From an uncultured Pseudomonadales bacterium (GTDB lineage Bacteria; Patescibacteriota; Microgenomatia; UBA1400; PJMF01), in assembly GCA_964574595.1 (NCBI GenBank), contig CAZNOF010000007.1, positions 11,703 through 75,702 on the forward strand: a stretch of 64,000 nt of DNA, read 5' to 3'. Numbering within the stretch: the stretch's first letter is position 1; every line of letters starts with the position of its first letter. Shown piece by piece: positions 48,491-64,000 of this stretch. The position numbers and the translations under genes were made by a program. Under the pieces are notes generated by a model. That model made no database searches and was not told the origin of the DNA. It was given only the letters and a program-made list of their open reading frames with translations.

Positions 48491-48681
48491 TGAAACACAA
48501 ATTTAAGACAATCTTTGTCATTATGACAAAGAATTACGAATGAATTAGGCAAAAAAAAACTAGTGTCTGGCACTAGAGAGTACATTCTAGTTATGTATTT
48601 CCATAAATGCAAGTTCGGATTTTCCCGTCGAGTAGCAGCGGATTTTCAGCTTCTTTTCAGATAAAAGCGTATAATAACGAT

Positions 48682-49356
48682 ATGAGAATTTTAGTTGTCG
48701 AGGATGAACATAGAATTGCCAATACGGTAAAAAAGGGACTTGAACAAGAACGTTACGCCGTAGATGTTGCCTATAGTGGGAGTGATGGTTTTGACCTCGC
48801 CCTCACAGAAGATTATGATCTTATCATTCTTGACTTAATGTTGCCTGAAATGGATGGCTTAACCATCTGCAAAGAGCTTAGAGCAAAACACATTCACACC
48901 CCGATTTTAATTCTGACTGCTAAAGGTCAACTCCATGACAAAGTCACTGGACTTGATACTGGCGCTGATGACTACTTAACCAAACCGTTTTCCTTTGAAG
49001 AACTTTTAGCCAGAATTCGCGCCCTATCACGTCGACCTAAAACCGTCATTGACTCGGTCTTAAATATTGGCGACTTGAAACTAGACCCTCAACAGTACGT
49101 GGCTGAAAGATCTGGCCAGAGCATTCAGCTTTCAAGCAAAGAGTTTTCATTATTAGAATACTTGATGCGGCACCCCAGGAAAATCTTAACAAAAAAGCAA
49201 ATTATCAGTCACGTTTGGGACTATGAAGCAGATGTTTTGCCTAACACTGTGGAAGTCTACATTCGTAACCTCCGAAATAAGATTGACCAACCTTTCAAGG
49301 ATAAAAAAGCTTTAATTCAGACTGTTCGCGGCTTTGGGTATAAGATAGGAGAGTGA
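48682..49356 (+). CDS. OmpR-family response regulator. Start at the MRILVVEDE Met; the track's longer 48607 start is rejected.
   Basis: Receiver (ILVVEDE, LIILDLMLPEMDG, KPF) and winged-helix output domain (LSSKEFSLLEYLMRHP ... VRGFGYKI). A TATAAT hexamer lies 6 nt upstream of the ATG. Confidence 0.9.
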   Translation: MRILVVEDEHRIANTVKKGLEQERYAVDVAYSGSDGFDLALTEDYDLIILDLMLPEMDGLTICKELRAKHIHTPILILTAKGQLHDKVTGLDTGADDYLTKPFSFEELLARIRALSRRPKTVIDSVLNIGDLKLDPQQYVAERSGQSIQLSSKEFSLLEYLMRHPRKILTKKQIISHVWDYEADVLPNTVEVYIRNLRNKIDQPFKDKKALIQTVRGFGYKIGE

Positions 49357-50420
49357 CAATGTTCCGCTCCGCCCGCTTGAAATTAACTCTCTGGTATTTA
49401 CTGATTATCATGTTCATTAGTTTGGCGTTTAGTTTTTTTATCTATAACGTCTTAATTACTGAAGTCCAAAGATTTGCTGACATGCAGCAGGCTCGAATTG
49501 AACATCAGGTAATGGAGAGTCAGTTATTTTATCAAGGATTTATTGATCCCAATCAGTCTGTCCCCGACTTTAGCAAACAACTTGTTGAGGAAACACAACG
49601 ACGACTCATTTTCATTTTATTTATTATCAATGGCAGTATCCTGATTCTAGCCGGTGGCATCGGATACTTCTTGGCCGGGAGAACACTGCGACCAATTCAA
49701 GAAATGCTGAGCGAGCAAAATCGCTTCATTTCTGATTCATCCCACGAACTGAGAACACCACTCACCTCATTGAAAACAGCCATGGAAGTCAGTCTCAGGG
49801 ATAAAAACTTAAAACTAGCGGAAGCCAAAACCATCCTGAACGAAAGCATTGATGAGGTAAATAAACTTCAGGCACTTTCTGATGGTTTGTTGCAATTAGC
49901 GCAGTATCAAAAACCAAATAACTCCATTCCATTCAGTACCATTTCACTTAAGGCCGTGGTGGAAAAATCGATTAAGCATGTCTCACCGATGGCTCAGAAA
50001 AAATCGATAACCATCCATGACCAAACTGCGGATATTACATTTGAGGGCAATGCTTTTGGCATGACTGATTTGCTGGTCATCTTATTAGATAATGCCATTA
50101 AGTACACTGCAAACGAAAAGAATATTTTCCTTTTCTCGAAGCAGAAAGATGGCTTTTTACAGATTCTTGTTCAAGATCAAGGTATAGGCGTCAATGAAAA
50201 GGATATTCCCCATTTATTTGATCGCTTTTATCGAGCAGATGAAGCGCGATCGAAAGAATCCATTGGTGGCTACGGGCTCGGACTATCCATTGCTAAGAAA
50301 ATCGTGGAATCCCATAAAGGCACTATCCAAGCTAAAAAGAACGTAGAAGACGGGAGCACATTTGTGGTTCTTATCCCTCTTAAACAATCCTTTATAAGAA
50401 GACCTCACCTTTTCAGTTAG
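49353..50420 (+). CDS. membrane sensor histidine kinase (two transmembrane segments, about 60-aa extracytoplasmic loop)
   Basis: H-box (SSHELRTPLTSL). N, G1 and G2 boxes (LDNAIKYT, DQGIGV, GYGLGLSIA). Overlaps the regulator by 4 nt. Confidence 0.85.
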   Translation: MTMFRSARLKLTLWYLLIIMFISLAFSFFIYNVLITEVQRFADMQQARIEHQVMESQLFYQGFIDPNQSVPDFSKQLVEETQRRLIFILFIINGSILILAGGIGYFLAGRTLRPIQEMLSEQNRFISDSSHELRTPLTSLKTAMEVSLRDKNLKLAEAKTILNESIDEVNKLQALSDGLLQLAQYQKPNNSIPFSTISLKAVVEKSIKHVSPMAQKKSITIHDQTADITFEGNAFGMTDLLVILLDNAIKYTANEKNIFLFSKQKDGFLQILVQDQGIGVNEKDIPHLFDRFYRADEARSKESIGGYGLGLSIAKKIVESHKGTIQAKKNVEDGSTFVVLIPLKQSFIRRPHLFS

Positions 50421-50474
50421 ATTTCAGAGAACGAGACTAAACTACTACTTATTAGTAGAAAAGACTTACGTATC

Positions 50475-51761
50475 ATGCAAAAAATCAATTCAATTAAAAA
50501 ATGGCTAATAAACAGCCCACTCATCGTGAAAGCTGGCCTACTGTTAATGATCTTGGCGATAGGCTGGTTTGCTTACTCTAAAGTAGGAGCCACGTCATCT
50601 TCTCAGCAGGCTCAGTATCAAACTGCTCAAGTTGGAAAAGGGACTATTGTGGTCACAGTGACTTCATCAGGTTCTGTTTCTAGCGCTAATAGTGGCTCAG
50701 TCACTACACAAGCTTCTGGGGTGGTAACCAAGATTTTAGTCAAAAACGGCCAACAGGTAAAAACAGGACAAGAAATTGCCACTTTTGACTTGGACCAAAC
50801 TTCAAAACAAAAATATGCGGCTGCGCTAGCATCTTACCAGAGCGCCAAGAACAACCTAGCCAGTGCACAGGCCAAACTGTATTCGCTCCAAGCTGCTGAG
50901 TTTAAAGCCAATCAACAGTTTATGAATGGCAAAGGAACTTCTACCACACCAGATACTTCTGACCCTAATTACATTCAAGAAAATGCAACTTGGCTACAAG
51001 CAGAAGCTGACTATAAAAACCAAGCTTCCGTCATTTCCCAAGCTCAGACACAACTCAATTCAGCATCTCTGGCATTACTCCAAGTCTCTCCGACCGTGAC
51101 TTCTCCAATTTCTGGAACCGTCACAGGATTATCACTCCAGGTGGGCTCAGTCTTAGGATCAGCTTCAGATTCAAGTGGCAACCAAACTGCTCAAAAAATC
51201 GCCAGTATACAAACAACTGCTCAACCAACAATCACCGTAAACTTAACCCAAGTAGATATTCCAAAGATTAAAGTTGGCAACAAGGCAACCTTAACCTTTG
51301 ATGCCTTTTCAGATAAGACGTTCACCGGTGAAGTGGTTAGTATCGATACAATCGGCTCAGTTAGTTCTGGGGTCACCACATACCCAGCGGTCATTAAATT
51401 AGATACCAGCTCAGCTGACATCTTCTCAAATATGACAGCTACCGCCAACATTATCACCGACAGTAAATCGGACGTCCTGATTGTACCTTCCAGTGCCCTA
51501 GTGAGCTCAAATGGCGAAACCTTCGCCAGAGTTCTCAAAAATAATCAGGAAACCCAAGTGGCTGTCACGACAGGGCTCGCGTCTAGTACGCAGGTGGAAA
51601 TTACTTCAGGCTTAAGCGAGGGAGATATGGTCATTACTGGTACAACTTCCTCTGCAGCTGCCACCACCTCAACTACTAGTACAACGTCTGTTTTCAGTAC
51701 CTTGGGTGGCGCTAGAGGCGGTGCTGCTGGCGTAAATGTCGTCAGAGTTAGAGGTAACTAA
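50475..51761 (+). CDS. MacA/HlyD-family periplasmic adaptor with a Thr/Ser/Ala-rich low-complexity C-terminal tail
   Basis: N-terminal anchor, lipoyl and beta-barrel segments and a long Q/A-rich coiled coil. C-terminus TTSSAAATTSTTSTTSVFSTLGGARGGAAG. Upstream of the MacB-like ATPase and permease. Confidence 0.75.
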   Translation: MQKINSIKKWLINSPLIVKAGLLLMILAIGWFAYSKVGATSSSQQAQYQTAQVGKGTIVVTVTSSGSVSSANSGSVTTQASGVVTKILVKNGQQVKTGQEIATFDLDQTSKQKYAAALASYQSAKNNLASAQAKLYSLQAAEFKANQQFMNGKGTSTTPDTSDPNYIQENATWLQAEADYKNQASVISQAQTQLNSASLALLQVSPTVTSPISGTVTGLSLQVGSVLGSASDSSGNQTAQKIASIQTTAQPTITVNLTQVDIPKIKVGNKATLTFDAFSDKTFTGEVVSIDTIGSVSSGVTTYPAVIKLDTSSADIFSNMTATANIITDSKSDVLIVPSSALVSSNGETFARVLKNNQETQVAVTTGLASSTQVEITSGLSEGDMVITGTTSSAAATTSTTSTTSVFSTLGGARGGAAGVNVVRVRGN

Positions 51762-51762
51762 T

Positions 51763-52506
51763 ATGGCTAATTCTGTGCCGGCAATTAAAGTCTCTCATAT
51801 CTCCAAAATTTATAAGATGGAAGGTGGTTTGGAGACTGTAGCTTTGTCTGATATTACCTTTGAAGTTAAAAAAGGCGAGTTTGTAGCAATCATGGGACCC
51901 TCCGGTTCTGGCAAATCCACCTTGATGCACATTTTGGGTGCTCTGGATAAACCAACCAGTGGTGAGTATATTCTTGATGGTGAAAATGTTTCGCAACTTG
52001 ATGATGATGATTTAGCAGATATTAGAAATCGCAAAATTGGCTTTATTTTTCAGGCATTTAACCTTCTCCCAAGAACAACAACTATGAAAAATGTGATGCT
52101 ACCAATGGCGTACGCTGGCTTGCCAAAAGACGAGCAACTCAGAACTGCTCAGAAGTACTTAGAAATGGTTGGCTTAGGTCACCGGCTCCAGCACACTTCG
52201 AATCAACTTTCTGGTGGACAACAACAAAGAGTCGCCATTGCTCGATCGCTCGTATTAAACCCGGCAATTTTATTAGCTGATGAACCAACAGGAAATATTG
52301 CTACCTCGCAAGCTGCTGAGATTATGTCCATCTTTCAACAGTTAAACGATGAAGGACACACCATCGTCATGATTACCCATGAACCAGATATTGCTGAGCA
52401 CGCAAAAAGAGTCATTCACATCCGTGACGGTAAAATTTCAGCAGATACGACTCAACATCAGCAACGTAGAGCAAAAAGAAATACAAAAATCGTAGAAGAT
52501 CAATAA
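51763..52506 (+). CDS. ABC transporter ATP-binding protein (MacB/LolD-like ATPase)
   Basis: Walker A (GPSGSGKST), Q-loop, signature (LSGGQQQRVAIARSL), Walker B (LLADEPTGNI), H-loop. Start at the Met 1 nt after the adaptor gene's stop. Confidence 0.9.
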   Translation: MANSVPAIKVSHISKIYKMEGGLETVALSDITFEVKKGEFVAIMGPSGSGKSTLMHILGALDKPTSGEYILDGENVSQLDDDDLADIRNRKIGFIFQAFNLLPRTTTMKNVMLPMAYAGLPKDEQLRTAQKYLEMVGLGHRLQHTSNQLSGGQQQRVAIARSLVLNPAILLADEPTGNIATSQAAEIMSIFQQLNDEGHTIVMITHEPDIAEHAKRVIHIRDGKISADTTQHQQRRAKRNTKIVEDQ

Positions 52507-52509
52507 CAT

Positions 52510-53730
52510 ATGAATTTACTCGATCTATTTTTTGAAGGACTGAATACTTTGAACGTCAACAAGATGAGAACCGGCTTGGCAATCTTAGGAATTGTGATTG
52601 GTATTGGCAGCGTGATCGCCCTGGTCTCACTTGGCCAGGCAAGTCAGCAGGCTGTTCAATCTCAGATTCAGTCACTCGGCGCTAACCTGATTACCGTGAG
52701 TCCGGGTTCTCAGCAGAGTGGGCTGGTGCGTGGAGCGGAGGGTGGTGGAACCACCTTAACCAATGACGATGCTAAAGCCATTAAAACTTCTTCTTCTGTT
52801 ACAACTATCGCCAACGTTTCTCCAGAATATTCTGGTCGAAGTCAGGTGACTACCGGTTCAACGAATGCCAATACCCAAGTGATTGGCGTTGAACCTATCT
52901 ACACCTCTGTTCATAAGATTTCCATTTCTTCAGGCAACTTTATTACTCAACGGGATGTCGACACCATGGCTAAAGTCGCAGTTATTGGCCCAACAGTAGT
53001 TACTAATTTATTTAATGGAGCTGATCCAATTGGTCAAACCATCCGAGTAGGAACACAAACTTTAACGGTTGTGGGTGTGACTGTTTCTAAAGGTGGCACG
53101 GGATTTCAAAACCAAGACGACATTATCTATGTTCCCTTGTCGACTGCTCAAAAACAAATTTATGGGAAAAATTACTTGAGTTCAATCGCTCTTGAAGCTA
53201 AAAGTTCTGAGGTAATGGTCCAGGCTCAAGATGAGGTGGGGTACTTGCTCTTATCCAGGCACAAGTTGACCGATCCAGCTAAGGCTGACTTTTCAATATT
53301 TTCGCAACAGGACATTTTAAATACTGTTTCTGCCACCACAGGCACATTCACTACGCTTCTGTCAGGAGTTGCCGCCATTTCACTGCTCGTTGGAGGTATT
53401 GGCATTATGAACATCATGCTGGTGACGGTAACTGAACGAACAAGAGAAATCGGCTTACGAAAAGCATTGGGAGCCAAGAAAAAAGTCATTACCACGCAGT
53501 TTTTAATCGAATCAATCTTGTTAACATTTACTGGTGGAATCATTGGCGTATTCTTCGGCATTGCCGCTTCATTTGCCATTGCTCAATTTACCAGTTCTCC
53601 ATTCGTCATTTCTCCTCCTTCAATTCTGCTGGCTTGTGCGGTCTCAGCAGTGATTGGCATTCTGTTTGGCTGGTACCCAGCTCAACGAGCTGCCAATTTG
53701 CAGCCTATCGAAGCATTGAGATATGAATAA
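52510..53730 (+). CDS. ABC transporter permease (FtsX-like / MacB permease domain)
   Basis: N-terminal transmembrane segment, a large extracytoplasmic domain, then three C-terminal transmembrane segments with the FtsX motif region (TERTREIGLRKALGA). Confidence 0.85.
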   Translation: MNLLDLFFEGLNTLNVNKMRTGLAILGIVIGIGSVIALVSLGQASQQAVQSQIQSLGANLITVSPGSQQSGLVRGAEGGGTTLTNDDAKAIKTSSSVTTIANVSPEYSGRSQVTTGSTNANTQVIGVEPIYTSVHKISISSGNFITQRDVDTMAKVAVIGPTVVTNLFNGADPIGQTIRVGTQTLTVVGVTVSKGGTGFQNQDDIIYVPLSTAQKQIYGKNYLSSIALEAKSSEVMVQAQDEVGYLLLSRHKLTDPAKADFSIFSQQDILNTVSATTGTFTTLLSGVAAISLLVGGIGIMNIMLVTVTERTREIGLRKALGAKKKVITTQFLIESILLTFTGGIIGVFFGIAASFAIAQFTSSPFVISPPSILLACAVSAVIGILFGWYPAQRAANLQPIEALRYE

Positions 53731-53750
53731 ATAATAAAAAAGGAGTCTTT

Positions 53751-54245
53751 ATGAAAGACATGAAAAATCAATCTATGCTCATTACGGTGGTCGCCGTGGT
53801 AATTGTGGGAGCCGCTGCATTCTTTGGAGGTATGAAATATCAACAAAGTAAACAATTTGCTGGCTTTCGGATGGGTGCTGCGGGAATGATGGGTCAGCAA
53901 GGAAACAGACAATTTGTGGCGGGTCAAAATGGTCGTACCGGGACAGCAAATAGTATGAGACCAGTTGTAGGTGAGATTCTGAGTATGGACGACAAATCAA
54001 TTACGGTAAAACTCCAAGACGGTAGCAGCAAAATTGTGTTACTTCCAGATACAGCAACCTACAGCAAAACTGACACCGGTTCAAAAGCTGATTTAAAGGT
54101 TGGTGGCAAAGTGGGTGTTTTTGGCACCACGAATAGTGACGGCAGTGTGACTGCTCAAACAGTTCAAGAGAATCCGGCTTTTGGAATTGCTGGCCCGGGC
54201 ATGATGCGTGAAGTAATTACTTCCCCTTCTCCTGCCACAAAATAA
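53751..54245 (+). CDS. hypothetical exported protein (164 aa, Gly/Gln-rich linker plus beta-rich C-terminal domain)
   Basis: AGGAG ribosome-binding site 5 nt upstream. N-terminal transmembrane/signal segment (MLITVVAVVIVGAAAFFGG). Followed by a terminator. Confidence 0.5.
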   Translation: MKDMKNQSMLITVVAVVIVGAAAFFGGMKYQQSKQFAGFRMGAAGMMGQQGNRQFVAGQNGRTGTANSMRPVVGEILSMDDKSITVKLQDGSSKIVLLPDTATYSKTDTGSKADLKVGGKVGVFGTTNSDGSVTAQTVQENPAFGIAGPGMMREVITSPSPATK

Positions 54246-54376: not shown

Positions 54377-54934
54377 ATGGTCATCATGAAAAAGCCAGCA
54401 TTCCCATTAATTCCCCAAGCAAAGAGTTCTTACTTCATACAGGAATACAAACCATCCGTACAAATTGAAGGTGTGAAGTTAATAGATTTGCCACATATTA
54501 ATAATGAAGAAGGTGACTTTTCCGAAATTCTCAGAATTAACGAGGAGGGTTGCCTTGAGCGCTTTCCGAACTTTAAATTACGCCAAATCAATCGAACTGA
54601 GCTTTTTCCTCAGTCCATCAAAGCTTGGCACTTCCATTTTAAACAAGATGAAATTTGGTACACAGGTCCAGCAAACCACATTGTAGTAGGATTATGGGAT
54701 CTGAGAGCTGACTCAAAAACGAGTGGTCAATCAACAAAAATCATCTTAGGTAATGGCAACCGCAACATGCTGTATATTCCAACTGGAGTGGCACATGGCT
54801 CGATTAACACCTCATCAAAATCTATTAACTTATTCTACTTTGTGAACCAACAGTTCAATCTCCAAGATCCTGATGAGCAAAGAATTCATTGGGATGCGCT
54901 AGGCGCAGACTTTTGGAAGCCAGAGCGAGACTAA
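54377..54934 (+). CDS. RmlC-like cupin (dTDP-4-dehydrorhamnose 3,5-epimerase family) sugar-nucleotide epimerase/isomerase
   Basis: Conserved HFHFKQDEIWY region (compare RmlC RGLHFQ) and a downstream YIPTGVAHG cupin motif. 185 aa. Confidence 0.6.
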   Translation: MVIMKKPAFPLIPQAKSSYFIQEYKPSVQIEGVKLIDLPHINNEEGDFSEILRINEEGCLERFPNFKLRQINRTELFPQSIKAWHFHFKQDEIWYTGPANHIVVGLWDLRADSKTSGQSTKIILGNGNRNMLYIPTGVAHGSINTSSKSINLFYFVNQQFNLQDPDEQRIHWDALGADFWKPERD

Positions 54935-54984: not shown

Positions 54985-56139
54985 GTGAGCATTTTGCTTC
55001 TTTGGAAGATCTTTCTTCTTTTGGTTGCAGTCTTAGCAACTAAGCTACTGACATTTATTCCTACGTTTACCCCGTTTGTGAGTGAGTACGCACGTAAGTA
55101 TCCTTATTTAGTAGGTATTTGGGGTAACTTTGATGGCATGCATTACTTAAGTATTGCTCGTCACGGATATGAGCCATTGAAGCAGGCGTTTTTCCCCCTT
55201 TACCCACTTCTCATTTGGACTGTTCATAGGATTGCAGGAATCTCATATCTTTACTCTGCATTGTTTGTGTCCCATTTTTTCTTTATTTGCACAGTTCCAG
55301 TACTTTATTTCTTAACCAAAAGAGATGGACAGTTTAATTGGTACTTTTTCCTCGCGATTCTATTGTTGTATCCAACTTCTTTCTTTTATGGTGCCGTATA
55401 CAACGACGCCTTATTTTTCTTTCTTGCCACGCACTCAATATTCTTTGCTAGGAAGCAAAATTGGTTAGTTGCAAGTCTTTTTGCTGGACTAGCCTCAATT
55501 GCCCGTTTAAATGGCTTAGCATTAGGGGTCTATATTGGTCTGGAGTACATCTTGGCTCAGGCAACATTGAAGGAAAGTTGGGATGTCAAATATATTGTCA
55601 AAAGTATTAAACGGAAGCTGCAGCTCTCTGAAATTTGGAAGAGTAAAATCCTGGCTGTTTTACTCGTTCCATTTGCCTTTGGTTCATACCTTTACTACCT
55701 CCAAGTAACTTTTGGGGACTGGAGAACACTTTTTAGATCCATGGAGATTTGGAAACAAAGTCACTTCACCTTTCCGCCAATTGTCGTTTGGCATTATGTA
55801 AAAATCCTGCTGACTTACTCCCCTAATCAACCAAACTACTGGATCGCAGTCTTAGAATTCTTTACTGTACTCTTTTACTGTCACGTATTGCTTTTATCAA
55901 TCAAGAAAATTCGCTTGTCTTACTGGATATTTATTGCCGTTTGTATTCTTATTCCATGGACAACAGGTACTTTTCAGGGCATGCCCAGGTACGCACTCCA
56001 TCTTTATCCCTTTTTCCTGGCTTGGAGTATTTTGTTAGCTGAGCAAAGTAAAGTAACCAAAGTTTTCTACTTTTTTGTTTCTGTTCTGGCACTCATTTTT
56101 ATTCTTACACTCTTTACTCGTGGCTACTTTGTTACATAA
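54985..56139 (+). CDS. polytopic membrane protein, probable GT-C-fold glycosyltransferase (PMT_2/DUF2029-like)
   Basis: About 10 predicted transmembrane helices. An acidic/aromatic motif in the first extracytoplasmic loop (NFDGMHYLSIARHGYEP). GTG start. Followed by a polyprenyl-phosphate-sugar synthase-like GT2. Confidence 0.45.
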   Translation: MSILLLWKIFLLLVAVLATKLLTFIPTFTPFVSEYARKYPYLVGIWGNFDGMHYLSIARHGYEPLKQAFFPLYPLLIWTVHRIAGISYLYSALFVSHFFFICTVPVLYFLTKRDGQFNWYFFLAILLLYPTSFFYGAVYNDALFFFLATHSIFFARKQNWLVASLFAGLASIARLNGLALGVYIGLEYILAQATLKESWDVKYIVKSIKRKLQLSEIWKSKILAVLLVPFAFGSYLYYLQVTFGDWRTLFRSMEIWKQSHFTFPPIVVWHYVKILLTYSPNQPNYWIAVLEFFTVLFYCHVLLLSIKKIRLSYWIFIAVCILIPWTTGTFQGMPRYALHLYPFFLAWSILLAEQSKVTKVFYFFVSVLALIFILTLFTRGYFVT

Positions 56140-56144
56140 TTTTT

Positions 56145-56879
56145 ATGAGAAAACTCCCTAGCTTAAGCATTTTCTTTCCATTTTTTAATGATGGGGGTAC
56201 GGTTCAAAAGGCTGTGGATTTAGCCTTCTCACTTGGAACACAACTGACAGATGATTTAGAAGTGATTGCGATTCATGGTGGAGACTCCACCGACGACACC
56301 CTTCACCAAATCAAACTCGCCAAAAGAGCTCATCCTACTTTAAGGGTTATCGATCAAACAGCAAATAAAATTGGCTATGCCGTGATTAAGTACGGTTTTG
56401 AGACAGCAAGAAAGGACTGGGTCTTTTACACAGATGGTGATCTGCAATATGACGTAGCTGAACTTAAACATTTAGTACTAAAGCAACTCTCTACAGGTGT
56501 GGACGTAGTAAATGGCTACAAGGTTAACAGAGGTGACAACTCTGCCAGAATCTTGCTCGGGCGACTCTATCAGCAGTTAGCTCATTCCCTCTTCAAATTA
56601 CCAATCCGAGACATTGACTGTGACTTCAGACTAATTAGGAGAAACTGCCTTAAAAAAACCCACTTAACAACCACACATGCCTCTATTCTCCCTGAGTTAA
56701 TTTGCCAGTTGGCGGCGCAAAAATGTTCCTTTGCAGAAGTCCCAGTTTCTCACTTCGCCAGGAGCTACGGGAAATCAAATTACACTTGGTGGAAACTGAG
56801 TTGGGAGAAACTGACAGGTGACACGAAACTCCTCTTCAAAATCTGGTCTAAACAAATCCTGGGAAGAAATCGATCATAA
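56145..56879 (+). CDS. GT2 polyprenyl-phosphate sugar synthase-like glycosyltransferase (Dpm1/ArnC-like)
   Basis: LSIFFPFFNDGGTV, DLEVIAIHGGDSTDDT, YTDGDLQYD (DxD). Size 244 aa, typical of Dpm1-like enzymes. Confidence 0.75.
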   Translation: MRKLPSLSIFFPFFNDGGTVQKAVDLAFSLGTQLTDDLEVIAIHGGDSTDDTLHQIKLAKRAHPTLRVIDQTANKIGYAVIKYGFETARKDWVFYTDGDLQYDVAELKHLVLKQLSTGVDVVNGYKVNRGDNSARILLGRLYQQLAHSLFKLPIRDIDCDFRLIRRNCLKKTHLTTTHASILPELICQLAAQKCSFAEVPVSHFARSYGKSNYTWWKLSWEKLTGDTKLLFKIWSKQILGRNRS

Positions 56880-58377
56880 TCTTTTCCTGCTTAATTCCCA
56901 TTGATGCAAGAACAGCTGCGTACGCTGTCACCATGGCATGAGGTCCCGAAAGATAGTACATTCTGTCAACAAAATCAGGAACTTCTTTTTTGATCAGCTC
57001 TGCATCAATTCTGCCGACATATCCATCCCAATTTTTCGGAATCATCCCATCACTACTCAATGTATAGACTGTTCTCATTCCAAAGGCTGTCTGAGCTTTT
57101 TGAAAAGTGTCTTGGTAAATAATGTCATCAGCATTTTTATTGGCAAAGAAAAGAACGATATCTCGTGGTTCCTTTTTATCGATAACATACTGAATCATAC
57201 TTCTAAACGGAGTAATACCTATTCCACCCCCAATAAAGACAATCTTTTGTGAGTGATCTTTTGGCAAGACAAAGTCTCCAGAAAGTTGATCAACCATAAT
57301 TTTCTCACCTGCGTTCATGAGGAGTAATTTCTTCTTAAAGCTGCTTGAGTCGGAAAACACTTTGATCGACAAACGGATATCATTTTCTGTAGGTGACGAT
57401 GCGATTGTAAAATATCGCCGATTCCCACGGCTATCGGGATGAGCATGACCCAGCGTCCACTCTAAATATTGGCCAGCCGTGAAAGGTAGCTTTTTCTCTG
57501 TTTCAAAAATAAATTCGTACAAATCTGAAGACAACTTGTTCTTTTTCTTTAAGCGCAGAGCCTGCTTAATTTTGGGTGTTACGATGTAGGAGAAGAGGTT
57601 TCCCAAAACCAATGCTACTTCAGGCGTTGAGTAGACCGGTCCAATGTGAAACTGAGCGCCAAAAAGAATTCCCACTAATACTCCATACATCACCCTTAAC
57701 TGTAAAGTTGGTGGAGTCGTCAAAGGTTCAGTTAACATGATTGTGCCAAAAAATAAAATTGGCCAAGAAGTAACAATTTGCGTTAAGACATCTACTAAGT
57801 TTAAGTGCGCTAGTACACCCATTAACAGAATCATTGAAATAGCTGGAATGATGAATGCAAAAAACAGATGGAAACGACGAATTTTTCTAACAATCAGCAG
57901 CCCAATAATTGCAGTAGTGGGGATCATCACAGAACTACCGACCCACCAAGTCGCCCCGCCAAGAGTCGTCAGTCCTAAAATCACAGCCGCAACTGCTGCG
58001 GGATTGAAAAGATGCTTTTTTTGTAACGCAAGCAAGTACTTTGAACTCATACTGATTACACCCGCCAAAACGAGTAATGGAATTCCGGAAACTTTCGTAA
58101 AAGGTGAGAACAGAAAGAATAAAATAAGTGCGGTAATTGTGGCTGACTCCACATTTATGGAAACCTGCAGGAGCCTTCCCCAAACTTGGTTCGTCACATA
58201 ACAACTTGCAAATAGAATGAATAATGACGCCACCATAAACACGGGATTAAATGACAAAAGACCAACGGCACTGAATACAACTGCTTGAATCACGAGAAAC
58301 AATAATCCATAAAGGACTAACCGGTACATCGTGATCGTGTTTAAGAGTGAGTCAATTTTGTTGATGACAACTGTCAT
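56848..58377 (-). CDS. membrane-integral oxidoreductase: about 280-aa polytopic N-terminal domain fused to a C-terminal ferredoxin-NADP reductase-type FAD/NAD(P)-binding domain
   Basis: C-terminal FNR motifs RRYFTIAS (RxYS), GGGIGITPF (NAD-binding) and YLSGP. The N-terminal region has 7-8 hydrophobic helices carrying four His. No CxxC or Fe-S motifs. Last gene of the ApbE operon. Confidence 0.7.
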   Translation of the reverse strand: MTVVINKIDSLLNTITMYRLVLYGLLFLVIQAVVFSAVGLLSFNPVFMVASLFILFASCYVTNQVWGRLLQVSINVESATITALILFFLFSPFTKVSGIPLLVLAGVISMSSKYLLALQKKHLFNPAAVAAVILGLTTLGGATWWVGSSVMIPTTAIIGLLIVRKIRRFHLFFAFIIPAISMILLMGVLAHLNLVDVLTQIVTSWPILFFGTIMLTEPLTTPPTLQLRVMYGVLVGILFGAQFHIGPVYSTPEVALVLGNLFSYIVTPKIKQALRLKKKNKLSSDLYEFIFETEKKLPFTAGQYLEWTLGHAHPDSRGNRRYFTIASSPTENDIRLSIKVFSDSSSFKKKLLLMNAGEKIMVDQLSGDFVLPKDHSQKIVFIGGGIGITPFRSMIQYVIDKKEPRDIVLFFANKNADDIIYQDTFQKAQTAFGMRTVYTLSSDGMIPKNWDGYVGRIDAELIKKEVPDFVDRMYYLSGPHAMVTAYAAVLASMGIKQEKIMIDFFPGFV

Positions 58378-58380
58378 AGA

Positions 58381-59265
58381 TTACCTTTCAAAAAACAGCT
58401 CTCCTGGAAAGTGATTTGAAACGTCGGTCGTCCCATCAGAAAATAAAACTACATACTCGAATTCATACGTAGCTTGTAGTTTTTGAGCTGATGTGAAGAA
58501 CAAGGCAGTAGCTAATGCATCTGCTGTCAAAGTATCATTGGCAATCACCCAAGTGGCTAGTATGTGGGTGGGAGAAGTTAAAGTGTGTGGACTGATTAGG
58601 TGGTGAAACTCTCCCCACTTTCTTCTGTTTCCCGCTGAACCGCAAATACTTTTATTTTTCACTTCAGCAACACCAATGACTTTAGTGATATCAGATGGAT
58701 TCTCCAACCCAATTCTCATTGGGGCAGAATTATCATTTTCAGCAGAACTACACAGAATATCACCACCGGCATCGATACAAAATGAGTAAATACCTTGCTG
58801 ATTTAAAACATCTCCCACAAGATCGATTAAATACCCTTTGCCTCCTGCGCCAAAATCAAGCAAAATCGGCTTCTTAATCGTTAAACTAGTCTTTGTAAAA
58901 GAGAGATAATCTTCCCATAATCCTGGCTTTTTAAGTGGCTTTGAAATAAGGGAGTATCTTGCGTCATAACCAGCATCTGACATCACTTGTCCAATTAATG
59001 GTGTAAAAGCGCCTTCGGTTAACCGATAAAGATCATGGTACAAGGACAGTAATTTTTCCCCATCAGCTGGCAATCTGTACTCACCCGAATTTCTAGACAT
59101 CTCGAAGATAGTCGAGTCCTCACGAAAGCGTGAGTAGTACTTATCAAAAGCATCTATTCTTTTTTGAATAAGCGTATAGACATCTCTTAGCTTTGCGGAA
59201 TTTACTTCATCAAAAAGATCAATTTGCCATTTGGTGCCAATTGCTTCAAAGTCAAATTGATTCAT
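58381..59265 (-). CDS. apbE: FAD:protein FMN transferase (ApbE family)
   Basis: ApbE-family length (294 aa) and conserved segments (DLYRLTEGAFTP, LLDFGAGGKGYLID, ENPSD...IGVAE). Lies between the FMN-binding lipoprotein and the membrane oxidoreductase. Confidence 0.8.
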   Translation of the reverse strand: MNQFDFEAIGTKWQIDLFDEVNSAKLRDVYTLIQKRIDAFDKYYSRFREDSTIFEMSRNSGEYRLPADGEKLLSLYHDLYRLTEGAFTPLIGQVMSDAGYDARYSLISKPLKKPGLWEDYLSFTKTSLTIKKPILLDFGAGGKGYLIDLVGDVLNQQGIYSFCIDAGGDILCSSAENDNSAPMRIGLENPSDITKVIGVAEVKNKSICGSAGNRRKWGEFHHLISPHTLTSPTHILATWVIANDTLTADALATALFFTSAQKLQATYEFEYVVLFSDGTTDVSNHFPGELFFER

Positions 59266-59279
59266 GAAAAACGACGATC

Positions 59280-59720
59280 TTAAACTTTTGCCTCAGTCTT
59301 AATTTTTGTGATAGCATCGTTAAAACCTTGTGGGGTTAATGATGAGCCAGAGACTTTAGAAAGGTTTACTTCATTAATATTTTTACCAATTACTTGAGCT
59401 TTATAATTTTCAATGAATGTTTGTTGGAATTGCTTGGACATTGGTCGCTCTGCTTTAGCGGTTACCTCGGCATCTGAAATCACGTTATCTTTTAAAGTCA
59501 CTTTGACTTCAATTTGTTCAGGACCACCTGGAGAAACATAATCACCCACAACATCATATTGACCATCTTTGTACTTTGCTGTCGATGTGTCAGAAGTTGG
59601 TGAGGCTTCTACTTTAGCAGCTGGGGTGGGTGTTTCGGCGGGAACTGTAGAACTGGCTGCACAACCAGAAAGTGAAATAACTGCGATGACGACAAGGCCT
59701 ACGAGAAGATGTTTTTTCAT
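59280..59720 (-). CDS. FMN-binding domain lipoprotein (NqrC/RnfG/PplA-like), a probable ApbE substrate
   Basis: Signal peptide with lipobox (VISLSGC). FMN_bind-like domain with a candidate flavinylation site SKVSGSSLT, which aligns to the D-x-x-S-G-A-T motif. Confidence 0.65.
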   Translation of the reverse strand: MKKHLLVGLVVIAVISLSGCAASSTVPAETPTPAAKVEASPTSDTSTAKYKDGQYDVVGDYVSPGGPEQIEVKVTLKDNVISDAEVTAKAERPMSKQFQQTFIENYKAQVIGKNINEVNLSKVSGSSLTPQGFNDAITKIKTEAKV

Positions 59721-59783
59721 ATGATTTAGCCTAACAAAGCAAACTGAAAATTTGCTGAATTTAAAGACTCCTTATATTTACTA

Positions 59784-61553
59784 TTAACTCTGTCTCTTAT
59801 CATGAAGCAACATGTTGACGGCATTGTCCAATGAACCAGCTTTCGTGATCTTGCCACCATTGACGAAGAAGATTTCGTCAGCATTCTCAATCGTATTTAA
59901 CCTATGGGCGATGATCACAATTGTGGTAGATTTTGGCAGCTGCTGAATGATCTCGTCTAACTGTTTTTCTGTGACGGTATCGATGTTCGCAGTTGCCTCG
60001 TCTAAAATTAAGAGTTCCGGATGTCTTAGCACGGCACGAATAAAGGCAATGAGCTGCTTCTGTCCTAAGCTCATTGTGTCTCCACTGCTGGTGACCTTTG
60101 TTTCCAACCCTTTATCAAATCGCTTTAGGATTTCATCTAAGTGAGACTCCTCTAAGACTCGGGCTAACTCTTCAGCTGAGTATTTCTCGTAAAGCAGATT
60201 GCCGTAAACAATGTTATCTCTGACCGTACCATTGAAGAGAAACGGTTCTTGCAAAATAAAGCCGATTTTTTGCGTTCTTTCAGTAGGCGTCCAACTTGAT
60301 ATGTTTCTACCGTCTAATAGAATTTCACCAGACGTTGGATCGTATAATCGAGCCATGAGAGATGCTGTTGTTGTCTTACCCCCACCAGTCGGGCCAACCA
60401 ATGCATACGTCTTTCCTTTTTTCAGGGTGAAGTTGATATCACTTAGCACTTCCTTACCGTCGGGGTAACCAAATGCCACATTTTTAAACTCAAGCAGGTT
60501 ATTTGTTTTTTCTATTGACGTTTCCTTTGTTGTTACAACCGCTAGATTATTCTCTAAACTTAAAATTTCTGATATTCGATCCCAGCCTGCCAACGCTTGT
60601 TGGAAGGAAGCCCACAAACTAGCAATCTGTCTCAGTGGGTCATAAAAGCGTGACATGTACGTTAAGAAACTGATGAGTAAACCAACAGACAAGTCTCCAA
60701 TCGTTATCAGATAGATACCATAGGTCAGAATAATGATTTGAGCCACATTAGAAGAAAAGTCGTAGATTGGAGTAAATATGCCATTAGCAATTCCTGCTTT
60801 TACAGCACTCACAAAGTTTAGTTGATTGGCTTGTTGAAATTTCTCTCTGAAGTAGTCCCTTCTGTTGAAAGCAACAATTACTTTAAAGTTGTTCAAGCTC
60901 TCTTGGATTTCCGCACTTAAATTGCCAGTACTCTGTAAGTTTTTTGTATTTTGCTTCTTCACCCAAACAGATAGTAAGCGAGTGATTATGAACAATCCAA
61001 CAGCAGGCAGTAATGCAGCAATTCCCAATTTAAAATTAATAAATAAAACGAAAATTCCAGCACCCACCATGATAAAAACGTTTCCAACAAATCGCATCAG
61101 CGTCTCAGAAAAAAATTGATTCAATTTATCGGTGTCATTGTTAATTCGGGAGATTAAATCACCGGCTTTATTTTGATTAAAAAAGGCAACTGGCAATTCT
61201 TGTAATTTGTTAAAAATCACATTCCGCAGTTTGAAAAGCACCCGCTGACCTACTCTACCCATCACTCTGAGTTGGATGTAACTAGCCACAAATGCACACA
61301 GATAAATTGTCAGTAGTATGCCACTGAATACAAGAACGCCATGAAACTGTTTGGCTTGGATATAGGTGTCAATTGTATGACCAACTAAAAAGGGAGCGGC
61401 TAATGTGAGCGAGGAGTTGATTAAAATTGCTAAAAATGCGATCACTAAATTTTTCTTCTCATCAGCGATTAATGGAAAGAACTGCTTCAGGGGAGCAGTT
61501 AACGGGCGTTTAGTCGCCTTAGAAGTAGCGTCGTTATTCAGCGTGTAGTTCAT
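59784..61553 (-). CDS. ABC transporter ATP-binding/permease protein (type I exporter half-transporter)
   Basis: Six-transmembrane domain plus NBD (Walker A GPTGGGKTT, signature LSLGQKQLIAFIRA, Walker B LILDEATANID). Start moved to an internal Met to avoid a 59-nt overlap with the partner gene. Confidence 0.85.
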   Translation of the reverse strand: MNYTLNNDATSKATKRPLTAPLKQFFPLIADEKKNLVIAFLAILINSSLTLAAPFLVGHTIDTYIQAKQFHGVLVFSGILLTIYLCAFVASYIQLRVMGRVGQRVLFKLRNVIFNKLQELPVAFFNQNKAGDLISRINNDTDKLNQFFSETLMRFVGNVFIMVGAGIFVLFINFKLGIAALLPAVGLFIITRLLSVWVKKQNTKNLQSTGNLSAEIQESLNNFKVIVAFNRRDYFREKFQQANQLNFVSAVKAGIANGIFTPIYDFSSNVAQIIILTYGIYLITIGDLSVGLLISFLTYMSRFYDPLRQIASLWASFQQALAGWDRISEILSLENNLAVVTTKETSIEKTNNLLEFKNVAFGYPDGKEVLSDINFTLKKGKTYALVGPTGGGKTTTASLMARLYDPTSGEILLDGRNISSWTPTERTQKIGFILQEPFLFNGTVRDNIVYGNLLYEKYSAEELARVLEESHLDEILKRFDKGLETKVTSSGDTMSLGQKQLIAFIRAVLRHPELLILDEATANIDTVTEKQLDEIIQQLPKSTTIVIIAHRLNTIENADEIFFVNGGKITKAGSLDNAVNMLLHDKRQS

Positions 61554-63267
61554 AATGATTGGTGCTCTTTTGAGAATTAAAGATCTGAACATACTCTGGC
61601 GAACTCTTCATCAGTTGTTTGTGCGTTCCCTTAGCCAGAATCTCACCTTCCATGAGCAGAATGATTTCTTCGTAGTTTTCAACTGAGGCAATCTTTTGCG
61701 TTACAGAAAGTAAAGTCAAATCTGGGTAATTTTCAGAGATATTGGCAACTATTTTTTGCTCTGTTTTAGTATCAATTCGAGCCGTGAAGTCATCGAGTAA
61801 AAGAATCTTTGGATTCACTGCCAATGCTCTTGCTAACATGATTCGTTGTTTCTGACCGCCAGACAAACTGGTTCCTCTTTCCGAGACTACCGTGTCTAAC
61901 TTTTCTGGTAATGAGTTAATGAAGTCATCAAGCTCTGCAGTTTTGATTGCCTTCTCTAAATCGTGATCCGTGACAGATGTACTAAAAGCAATGTTTTCTC
62001 TCAAACTCATATTAAAAATAATACTGTCTTGAAAAACAAAGCCAATCTGCTGATACACCGACTGTTGATCATAATTCTCTAATGTTTTTCCATCAAACAA
62101 AATTTGGCCGGTAGTGGGTCGAGTTAAACCAGTTAATAAATAGAGCAGTTGCGTTTTACCCGCCGCCGTTGGGCCGATCACCGCCACTTTCGTTCGCGGC
62201 TTCACAGAAAATGAGATGTTTTTTAGAGTGGGTTTGTCACCAAAATTAATTGTCACATCTTTTACTTCAATTTTTCCCGTCAGATTGGCTACTTCTTCTC
62301 CACTTGGTTTCTGCTCCGGTACATCCAAGACCTCGGAAACCCGTTTGTAAGAAGCGGCAGCTCTACCGATGACACTGCTCATAAACCCAATCAGAATGAT
62401 TGGAAAAATTAAAATGGATAGATAACTTAAGAAGGCTGTGAAGTCACCTAAACTCATCGTGCCATCAATCACAAATTTGCCACCCAAAGCTAATATTGAA
62501 AGAGACGCCATGTTCCCAACAAAAGTAATAATCGGAATTAAACTAGCAAACAGTTGCAGAATACTAAAGCCAATATTTTTCGCCTCCATATTGGCTGCCA
62601 AGAATTTTTGATACTCAGGTTGTTGAGAGTTCAAGATTCTGATCAGGGCTGATCCCAAAATGCTTTCATTAATAACTTTATTTAACCAGTCAATCGCTTC
62701 TTGGCCTCGTTTAAATAAAATTCCCATTTTTGAAAAGAGAAAAATAAATGTACCGGCAATAATTGGCAAGATCATTAAGACAACTAGAGCAAGCCGCCAG
62801 TTAATCATCAGTAATAATGTGCTGGCACCGATGATCAAAAAAAGTGAAGAGACTATCGAAGCAATCGCCTGCGAGACAAAGAGCTTGACTGAGTCAATAT
62901 CTGAGGTCAAGTTTGTGAGTAATCTAGAAGGAGAAGCTGATTGAATATATGCATAATCCTGACGAGAAATTTTGGCTGCCACTTGCTCACGTAAGTCCTT
63001 GGCAACTCTCTCAGAAGCGTACGTTTGAACAATACTTTGTAAGTACAACAAGACAAGAATCGCTACCGAAGCAACTGAAAACTGAAGCATTAAATTTGTA
63101 AGCTGGAATTGGCCCTGATTAAATGAATCTATTGCTGAACCAGTAATTTTGGGCAACAGTAAATTCAGTCCATTAGCAGCAAACGCTAAGAGGATGAGCA
63201 AAATAATATATCCAGTATATGGTTTCAGCAGCCCAAGCAAACTTGGACCAGAACTTTTATTTTTCAT
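61534..63267 (-). CDS. ABC transporter ATP-binding/permease protein (type I exporter half-transporter, heterodimer partner)
   Basis: Six-transmembrane domain plus NBD (Walker A GPTAAGKTQ, signature LSGGQKQRIMLARAL, Walker B LLLDDFTARID). Confidence 0.85.
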   Translation of the reverse strand: MKNKSSGPSLLGLLKPYTGYIILLILLAFAANGLNLLLPKITGSAIDSFNQGQFQLTNLMLQFSVASVAILVLLYLQSIVQTYASERVAKDLREQVAAKISRQDYAYIQSASPSRLLTNLTSDIDSVKLFVSQAIASIVSSLFLIIGASTLLLMINWRLALVVLMILPIIAGTFIFLFSKMGILFKRGQEAIDWLNKVINESILGSALIRILNSQQPEYQKFLAANMEAKNIGFSILQLFASLIPIITFVGNMASLSILALGGKFVIDGTMSLGDFTAFLSYLSILIFPIILIGFMSSVIGRAAASYKRVSEVLDVPEQKPSGEEVANLTGKIEVKDVTINFGDKPTLKNISFSVKPRTKVAVIGPTAAGKTQLLYLLTGLTRPTTGQILFDGKTLENYDQQSVYQQIGFVFQDSIIFNMSLRENIAFSTSVTDHDLEKAIKTAELDDFINSLPEKLDTVVSERGTSLSGGQKQRIMLARALAVNPKILLLDDFTARIDTKTEQKIVANISENYPDLTLLSVTQKIASVENYEEIILLMEGEILAKGTHKQLMKSSPEYVQIFNSQKSTNHYELHAE

Positions 63268-63317
63268 GAAAAACTTTCGGACGCCATCATACCAAATAAA
63301 TGAGGTACGATATAGCT

Positions 63318-63968
63318 ATGAAACGATTGGAGTTCTTTTTTTCAGTGCTCGTGCTTGGTCTTTTTGGGGTGTTTACCATCTTGGTTAGACAACACCTCTT
63401 TGATCAACTTGATTTAGATCTCACAGTCAAATTACAAGATCACATTTCTCACTTTTTTGACACTGGCTTCTCTTTTTTTAGTATTTTGGGAGCCGCTGAA
63501 ATTATCAGTTTCTTTTTGCTCGTTCCGCTATTTCTCTACTATAAATCAAGAGGTATTCTCATATTTTTGGCCTACGGTTTTGGACTCTTTATAGAAGTTG
63601 TGGGAAAAACATTCCTAACTCACTCTGGCCCACCGCACCTCTTTTTTCGCAATGACATCAATTTTCACTTTCCTAGCTCATACATTGAAACGTTGCATTC
63701 GTACCCATCGGGTCACTCTTATCGCACAGTCTTTATTGCTTATGTCTGGTTTGTCTATCTGTTTGAACGATATCCCTCACGAGTTACTCGCAGCATTGTC
63801 TTCCTCATAATTGCAAGTTTATGTGCTATCATGCTGATCTCGAGAGTCTCTCTGGGCGAACACTGGACAACGGACGTTGTTGGTGGAAGTCTGCTCGGTC
63901 TTGGGTTAGCAATGGCTAGCTGCGCCTTGAGAAAACCTGTCATAAAGAAACAAAAGCACCACTCATGA
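63318..63968 (+). CDS. PAP2 family phosphatase (undecaprenyl-diphosphatase / lipid phosphatase-like)
   Basis: PAP2 motifs (KxxxxxxRP-like, PSGHS, SRVSLGEHWTTDV). Start chosen at the Met preceded by GAGGT. The track's start at 63300 lacks a ribosome-binding site. Confidence 0.75.
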   Translation: MKRLEFFFSVLVLGLFGVFTILVRQHLFDQLDLDLTVKLQDHISHFFDTGFSFFSILGAAEIISFFLLVPLFLYYKSRGILIFLAYGFGLFIEVVGKTFLTHSGPPHLFFRNDINFHFPSSYIETLHSYPSGHSYRTVFIAYVWFVYLFERYPSRVTRSIVFLIIASLCAIMLISRVSLGEHWTTDVVGGSLLGLGLAMASCALRKPVIKKQKHHS

Positions 63969-64000
63969 AGTTTGATCGACCAATCCCAAAGATTCCACCC

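Follow-up and report, generated by a model that had tools for sequence, protein, structure and literature searches.

The window analysed here, a 64,000-nucleotide stretch of contig CAZNOF010000007.1, carries on its minus strand three adjacent genes for a lipoprotein with an FMN_bind domain, an ApbE-type flavin transferase and a fusion of a membrane domain with an FNR-type reductase module. Judged from sequence, this trio is a new, divergent member of the NQR/RNF-like system, which is published and experimentally uncharacterised. By analogy with NQR and RNF, we consider it probable that the trio forms a two-subunit transmembrane electron conduit of NQR/RNF-like type, independent of quinone, haem and iron-sulphur (Fe-S) clusters, together with its dedicated flavin transferase. 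The open reading frame (ORF) listing returned the three co-directional genes with their coordinates unchanged from the initial annotation and with gaps of 14 nt and 3 nt. The features assigned, with the evidence used (FAD, flavin adenine dinucleotide; FMN, flavin mononucleotide; HMM, hidden Markov model; aa, amino acids), were:

59280..59720, minus strand: RnfG/NqrC-like FMN_bind lipoprotein, 146 aa (PF04205, family HMM, alignment with RsxG)
59661..59672, minus strand: lipobox L-S-G-C, aa 17-20 (sequence; follows an MKKH N-region and hydrophobic core)
59340..59360, minus strand: predicted flavinylation motif S-K-V-S-G-S-S, aa 121-127, with Ser127 as acceptor (alignment)
58381..59265, minus strand: ApbE-type FAD:protein FMN transferase, 294 aa (PF02424; no signal peptide or lipobox)
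56848..58377, minus strand: membrane-FNR fusion protein, 509 aa (ORF listing, Pfam)
57568..58377, minus strand: N-terminal RnfD/NqrB-like polytopic membrane domain of the fusion, aa 1-270, without the flavinylated-Thr loop (homologues, fold)
56848..57567, minus strand: C-terminal FNR-type FAD/NAD(P)H-binding domain of the fusion, aa 271-509 and stop codon, predicted cytoplasmic (PF00175, PF00970)

The membrane domain had been considered unassignable and possibly a less-described family, and aa 1-270 of the fusion indeed showed no Pfam match, the ferric reductase family PF01794 included. We now identify it as RnfD/NqrB-like because four independent lines of evidence agree. N-terminal domains from 20 homologues were aligned (alignment A2) and scanned singly against Pfam; at 44-63% identity, 17 of the 20 matched PF03116 (NQR2_RnfD_RnfE), with a best E-value of 1.3e-12. 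The A2 profile found a single match in the PDB, RnfD of Azotobacter vinelandii (8ahx_D, E 0.0036), and hhalign of A2 against E. coli RsxD gave an E-value of 1.8e-5. An AlphaFold2 monomer model of the domain (predicted local distance difference test, 85.5; predicted template modelling score, 0.84) was compared with the PDB using Foldseek. Each of the top 15 matches was an RnfD or NqrB chain (E 6e-6 to 3e-3; query-normalised TM-score 0.57-0.68). The next matches were urea and Rh/ammonium channels at E>0.07, and such channels are known distant relatives of RnfD/NqrB (PMC12174285).

Alignment with E. coli RsxD was collinear from end to end apart from one deletion of ~79 residues in the window protein. 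Common motifs were FNPA, WxW, a K..R element ('QKAIRWH' in RsxD, 'VRKIRRFH' in the window) and LT[DE]PxT. Opposite RsxD residues ~137-215, the stretch with the GISQAT flavinylation site, both the window protein and its relatives have a gap. 'LGGATWW' (aa 140-146) was considered as an RnfD-type flavinylation site and rejected: Thr143 of 'GGATWW' was not conserved in a 30-sequence alignment of the fusion, and the true RnfD loop is deleted. No conserved flavinylation-like motif was found elsewhere in the fusion protein, in which the invariant Ser and Thr residues belong to standard FNR or RnfD motifs. The domain carries His122, His170, His191 and His244, and His122 alone was invariant in the same alignment; the bis-haem histidine pattern is thus absent, as had been noted initially. 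Sequence and modelled structure together indicate that aa 1-270 are a divergent, shortened RnfD/NqrB domain lacking both haem ligands and the covalent-FMN loop.

The C-terminal half of the fusion matched NAD_binding_1 (PF00175) at aa 381-486 with 67.3 bits against a cutoff of 22 bits (E 2.2e-18) and FAD_binding_6 (PF00970) at aa 274-343 slightly under the cutoff (E 9.7e-4). In NCBIfam this half resembled the reductase modules of flavohaemoprotein, Fre and NqrF, all below cutoff. R320, R321, T324, S327, G384-G387, T389, P390, S477 and G478 were invariant in the 30-sequence alignment. The motifs by which the initial annotation had recognised a textbook FNR module (RRYFTIAS, GGGIGITPF and YLSGP) fall on these invariant columns. 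K/R-rich segments at aa 164-168 (RKIRR) and aa 268-280 (KIKQALRLKKKNK) flank the last four helices, the second being the linker that follows the last transmembrane helix. These segments place the FNR domain, by prediction, on the cytoplasmic side, in agreement with the earlier proposal.

The combination of parts corresponds to a published system. In Meheust 2021 (PMC8238504), an NQR/RNF-like system is a fusion of PF03116 and PF00175 encoded in a flavinylation gene cluster, that is, with ApbE and/or FMN_bind within five genes and at least one protein with a signal peptide or lipidation site; 127 such clusters are given, mainly from Actinobacteria and the candidate phyla radiation. Huang 2024 (PMC11334425) presents an AlphaFold-Multimer model of the Ktedonobacter NQR/RNF-like complex with its two subunits tightly associated, describes a membrane domain without the flavinylation Thr of NqrB/RnfD, and suggests that the covalent flavin of the partner reaches the flavin site of the membrane domain. 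In the window, ApbE and FMN_bind genes lie directly upstream of the fusion gene on the same strand, the FMN_bind protein with its LSGC lipobox. The fusion joins an RnfD/NqrB domain (recognised through homologues, profile and fold) to PF00175 in one protein, and the flavinylated Thr is missing from its membrane domain along with the deleted loop.

Fusion, FMN_bind and ApbE together are the published NQR/RNF-like definition (PMC8238504, PMC11334425), and the suggestion that the fused architecture might be a less-described family was not upheld. The initial annotation had allowed that an RnfD/NqrB domain would make this an already-described system, and such a domain is what structure prediction and homologues show. 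Its idea of electron export, from NAD(P)H through FNR and membrane domain to a flavinylated external protein, agrees with the published proposal. Shared with the published system are the NqrB/RnfD-like and NqrF-like (PF00175) fusion, the adjacent FMN_bind (RnfG/NqrC-like) and apbE genes, the occurrence in the candidate phyla radiation and Actinobacteria, and the proposed one-way path from NAD(P)H to the outside. The window protein differs in being too divergent for PF03116, and the operational definition of the two papers would miss it. The window FMN_bind motif also differs, being an S-x-x-S-G-S-S variant that occurs with a longer (~290 aa) ApbE subtype.

A database search with the fusion gave >7,700 proteins at E<=1e-5. 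The best homologues were ~505 aa long, aligned over their full length and were mostly labelled Patescibacteria; about half carried precomputed PF03116 and PF00175. A phmmer search with the membrane domain alone against 1.84 billion representatives of 50%-identity clusters gave 1,285 matches at E<=1e-3 and 739 at E<=1e-10, mostly 490-510 aa long, which is the length of the fusion architecture. A neighbourhood scan limited to a single genome per species gave 80 loci, which belong to Patescibacteria, Chloroflexota (Dictyobacter, Ktedonospora), Alphaproteobacteria (Mesorhizobium, Kaistia), Actinobacteria (Agreia, Herbiconiux, Arthrobacter) and Spirochaetota. The order FMN_bind, ApbE, fusion was contiguous and co-directional in 63 of the 80, across five phyla. 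Several of the remaining loci were cut at contig ends, lacked a detectable ApbE or had the fusion gene alone.

Among these loci, FMN_bind stood beside the fusion with no detectable ApbE between them in L002 (5946-8506), L028 (6496-8530) and L060 (1455-3494), and L002 had two tandem FMN_bind genes. The fusion gene occurred without FMN_bind or ApbE in its flanks, with sequence available on both sides, in L029, L036, L042, L064 and L068. Among the nearest loci, several (L001, L003, L029, L031, L037, L056 and L078) are titled 'uncultured Gammaproteobacteria bacterium' (metagenome-assembled genomes, TPA_asm), and their trios were 46-50% identical to that of the window. L003, despite this title, has the MacAB block of candidate-phyla-radiation loci described below; the bin taxonomy of such records may be unreliable.

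The lipoprotein matched FMN_bind (PF04205) at 24.4 bits, against a cutoff of 22 bits, and a family HMM built from the cluster partners scored it at 119.9 bits; a PDB sequence search with the protein gave no match at E<=1. Its lipobox, LSGC, ends at Cys20. An N-terminal transmembrane helix or signal was present in 64 of 73 FMN_bind partners, whose mean net charge was +1.9 before the hydrophobic segment and -0.2 after it. These charges predict that the partners are oriented N-in, C-out, and lipobox and positive-inside rule predict that the FMN_bind protein lies outside. Bit score, Cys20 and charge pattern thus bear out the original reading of an exported FMN_bind lipoprotein. Tat export of a pre-folded flavoprotein was considered and rejected: the window signal lacks a twin-arginine, and among the relatives' N-termini inspected, RR-like motifs were seen in 1-2 only.

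The proposed flavinylation motif was borne out in part. Ser127 aligns with the Thr of VSGAT in canonical, subtype-a relatives and, in E. coli RsxG, with the Thr of FTGAT that is flavinylated. The match to D-x-x-[ST]-G-A-[ST] is only partial: in the window motif S-x-x-S-G-S-S, Asp and Ala are replaced and Ser stands at the acceptor position. The subtype to which the window belongs keeps the motif as xVSG[SA]SL[TS], and the inspected FMN_bind sequences all have an acceptor Ser or Thr in that alignment position. According to a review of ApbE, changing the Asp of the motif to Ala has a minor effect, and Ser acceptors work less efficiently (PMC12052999).

The call of an ApbE flavin transferase held (PF02424, E 1.1e-41), with the catalytic His and motifs in place. 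Residues 8-272 align with residues 14-292 of Vibrio cholerae ApbE (PDB chain 6nxi). His222 is the catalytic His, at the position mutated in PDB 6nxj; TADALAT aligns with TADGLAT and GKGY with AKGW of 6nxi, so that the Mg and FAD motifs are intact. The two subtypes of the system co-varied almost perfectly, ApbE type with FMN_bind motif type: a short ApbE (~247 aa) pairs with D-x-[VI]-[ST]-G-A-[TS], and a long ApbE (~290 aa, starting F-E-A-I-G-T), as in the window, pairs with x-V-S-G-[SA]-S-L-[TS]. From these sequences, ApbE is predicted to be the matched transferase of the lipoprotein. Because the trio is contiguous in most loci, the subtypes co-vary, and ApbE keeps its catalytic His along with both the Mg and the FAD motif, we regard the three genes as functionally linked.

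Members of the ApbE family typically, though not by definition, carry an N-terminal lipoprotein signal that directs them out of the cytoplasm. The window ApbE starts MNQFDFEAIG, directly at the catalytic domain and in what is already the longest possible ORF, with neither signal peptide nor lipobox, an absence that the initial annotation had not remarked on. A hydrophobic N-terminus was likewise absent in 68 of 68 cluster ApbEs, even in the longest ORFs (maximum 15-residue hydropathy before the domain <1.5). The initial annotation had tacitly assumed that ApbE works outside the cell, which these N-termini contradict. The searched passages of Meheust 2021 (PMC8238504) and Huang 2024 (PMC11334425) contain no comment on a missing ApbE signal peptide. 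With ApbE predicted in the cytosol and its substrate exported, the standard extracytosolic route of flavinylation cannot apply as it stands.

In the mechanism that we propose for the conduit, NAD(P)H would reduce the FAD of the cytoplasmic FNR domain, and the electron would pass to a non-covalent flavin in the RnfD/NqrB-like domain, at the RnfD/NqrB riboflavin site near the cytoplasmic face. From there it would reach a covalent FMN on Ser127 of the RnfG/NqrC-like lipoprotein, and finally an extracytosolic acceptor. The lipoprotein FMN would dock on the outer face, where RnfD would carry a covalent FMN of its own on the loop that is deleted here. In effect, the G-to-D-to-C half of the RNF pathway would be reversed, with the FNR module replacing RnfC. 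Every step is drawn from homology and the cofactor geometry is borrowed from RnfD/NqrB, in which ~8 Å separate a riboflavin near the cytoplasmic side from an FMN near the periplasmic one (PMC12174285).

The trio shares with RNF (RnfD-RnfG-RnfC) and Na+-NQR (NqrB-NqrC) the RnfD/NqrB fold with its FNPA and LT[DE]PxT motifs, an N-terminally anchored RnfG/NqrC-like partner with a C-terminal [ST]G[AS][ST], and a cytoplasmic NAD(P)-linked module. Unlike these six-subunit complexes, it has no RnfA/E, RnfB or RnfC/NqrA subunits, no Fe-S clusters and no covalent-FMN loop. A phmmer search of the window ORFs with E. coli RsxA, B, C, D and G gave no match at E<=10, single-sequence searches of this kind being weak for divergent genomes, and RNF/NQR subunit families were absent among conserved neighbours in the 80 loci. 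Where RNF has RnfC, the window trio has an FNR domain, fused in cis, as its NAD(P)H module, and the predicted flow is one-way rather than semicircular.

Other flavin-based systems are similar in layout. The MsrQ-/NOX-like haem b reductases in the excerpts of Meheust 2021 likewise combine a cytosolic NAD(P)H module, a membrane conduit, an extracytosolic flavinylated protein, ApbE and FMN_bind; their conduit has bis-haem His ligands in the ferric-reductase fold PF01794, whereas the window fold is RnfD-like with no conserved His pair. The flavin-based extracellular electron transfer of Listeria monocytogenes (Ndh2, EetA/B, PplA, FmnB) also has a transferase of the ApbE family, and its last protein-bound carrier is a flavinylated lipoprotein at the surface. 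It operates through NDH-2 and a demethylmenaquinone pool, whereas no quinone step is predicted for the window trio. FmnB is also extracytosolic and needs ECF-type FAD export (PMC9973259), whereas the window transferase has no export signal. In this last respect the window enzyme resembles the cytoplasmic ApbE of Klebsiella pneumoniae, which has no signal peptide and flavinylates a soluble fumarate reductase (PMC12052999). The substrate there is cytoplasmic, whereas the sole candidate substrate here has a lipoprotein signal or transmembrane anchor.

Several points weigh against the electron conduit as we describe it. The window protein itself had no PF03116 match even at E<=1, so its RnfD/NqrB identity was reached through transitive homology and fold. 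That the membrane domain binds flavin is assumed by analogy. The motif of the lipoprotein lacks the usual Asp and Ala and would present a Ser acceptor, reported to be less efficiently flavinylated. ApbE is predicted to be cytosolic and its presumed substrate exported. No acceptor-related gene was conserved beside the trio among the neighbours in the 80 loci, and no experiment on any NQR/RNF-like member was found in the literature searched.

The location of ApbE also suggests a different reading, in which the cytosolic enzyme does not flavinylate the exported lipoprotein. Its target would instead be cytoplasmic, or the enzyme would be an FAD pyrophosphatase or donate FMN to the membrane domain, and the lipoprotein would bind flavin non-covalently or not at all. 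The uniform lack of a hydrophobic N-terminus in the 68 cluster ApbEs is consistent with this, as is the departure of the window motif from the canonical one. Cytosolically expressed ApbE failed to complement an ApbE knockout in an early study, and the cytosolic ApbEs reported, such as that acting on K. pneumoniae fumarate reductase, have been described only with cytosolic substrates (PMC12052999). However, the near-perfect co-variation of ApbE with the FMN_bind motif, the retained acceptor Ser or Thr, and the lack of any conserved flavinylation-like motif in the fusion argue for the lipoprotein as substrate, and we consider a non-flavinylating ApbE unlikely. A 7-residue motif is enough for ApbE (PMC12052999), so that an unfolded, pre-export substrate is conceivable. 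The C-terminal motif, while still unfolded, could then receive its flavin inside the cytoplasm, prior to export or in its course, and the translocon would subsequently thread a polypeptide that bears phospho-linked FMN; we put this forward tentatively, as a possibility that is more doubtful than not. If true, extracytosolic flavoproteins would have a new route of biogenesis, one that needs no FAD export, which is attractive for minimal cells of the candidate phyla radiation. ApbE surveys filtered by signal peptide could then undercount flavinylation in these lineages.

The same parts could also form an energy-conserving pump, in which the flow of electrons out of the cell from NAD(P)H, through the RnfD/NqrB-like domain, is coupled to Na+ or H+ translocation; such a pump would be a minimal respiratory-like site for a fermentative cell of the candidate phyla radiation. 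RnfD/NqrB is a proposed ion path in NQR and in Clostridium tetanomorphum RNF (PMC12174285), the next-best structural relatives of this fold are urea and Rh/ammonium channels, and an invariant acidic residue, Glu217, lies in the LTEPLT half-helix, where RsxD has LTDPVT. Several coupling schemes proposed for RNF and NQR, however, need an RnfA/E (NqrD/E) switch and shuttling of RnfG/NqrC between A/E and D (PMC12174285), and an A/E homologue was found neither in the window by phmmer nor among conserved neighbours. We therefore judge a pump improbable. We attach hardly any probability to a haem-based transmembrane reductase of NOX, ferric-reductase or MsrQ type fused to FNR, an alternative weighed in the initial annotation. 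Its layout of a polytopic domain followed by a C-terminal FNR is similar, and the fusion has a weak match to NAD_binding_6, the NAD-binding domain of ferric reductases (E 0.0039, below cutoff). This reading is refuted by the lack of a PF01794 match, the single invariant His and a fold that matches RnfD and NqrB, with no haem-binding reductase among the 50 matches listed.

If the published model is right, an electron conduit of this type ranks among the simplest ways of carrying electrons out of the cell from NAD(P)H: it takes two proteins using flavins only, with no quinone, haem or Fe-S. The module is common in Patescibacteria, a group without conventional respiratory chains. Because of its wide spread (739 cluster representatives, Patescibacteria), it could serve these organisms to regenerate NAD+, to reduce metals or in redox repair of the envelope. 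The concept of the conduit is not new with the present locus. What the locus adds is that Pfam-based definitions miss divergent members and that ApbE of this family is uniformly without an export signal. A uniformly signal-less ApbE, paired and co-evolving with an exported substrate, is the topological interest that remains and needs explanation.

We also examined the genes around the trio. A promoter and terminator scan of 56000-64000 gave sites not more numerous than those in shuffled sequence. No tRNA genes were found in the 64,000-nt window. Immediately upstream of the FMN_bind gene, 63 nt away and on the same strand, are two genes for MsbA/CydDC-like ABC half-transporters (602 and 577 aa; 59784-63267, minus strand) with a 59-nt overlap between their ORFs. 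The pair may be co-transcribed with the trio in this genome. Its candidacy as an FAD or cofactor exporter of the system was rejected, the pair not being a conserved neighbour in the 80 loci.

A plus-strand block at 48607-54245 points at the trio from ~2.6 kb away:

48607-49356, plus strand: OmpR-type response regulator (best NCBIfam match the heavy-metal regulator TIGR01387, below cutoff)
49353-50420, plus strand: histidine kinase
50475-51761, plus strand: MacA-like adaptor
51736-52506, plus strand: MacB ATPase
52510-53730, plus strand: MacB permease
53751-54245, plus strand: small membrane-anchored DUF5666 protein

This block also adjoined the trio in several candidate-phyla-radiation loci, upstream in L003, L005, L006, L035 and L074 and downstream in L004, L019 and L022. 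In 14 of the 80 loci, some of them from Mesorhizobium and Spirochaetota, a two-component system was located <=200 bp from the trio; the flanks held one in 23 of the 80. The trio may be regulated by a stress or metal signal through a two-component system; kinases cluster easily by their catalytic domain, and orthology is not implied.

Between the MacAB block and the trio lies a small envelope-glycosylation insert. It consists of a dTDP-sugar epimerase-like gene (54377-54934), a PIG-V/GT-C-like membrane protein gene (54985-56139) and a family-2 glycosyltransferase gene (56145-56879, plus strand). The glycosyltransferase gene is convergent with the fusion gene, and their 3' ends overlap by 32 nt (56848-56879). 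On the other side of the trio, a PAP2-family phosphatase gene (63300-63968, plus strand; PF01569, E 1.2e-16) diverges from the ABC pair and is a further envelope-related neighbour.

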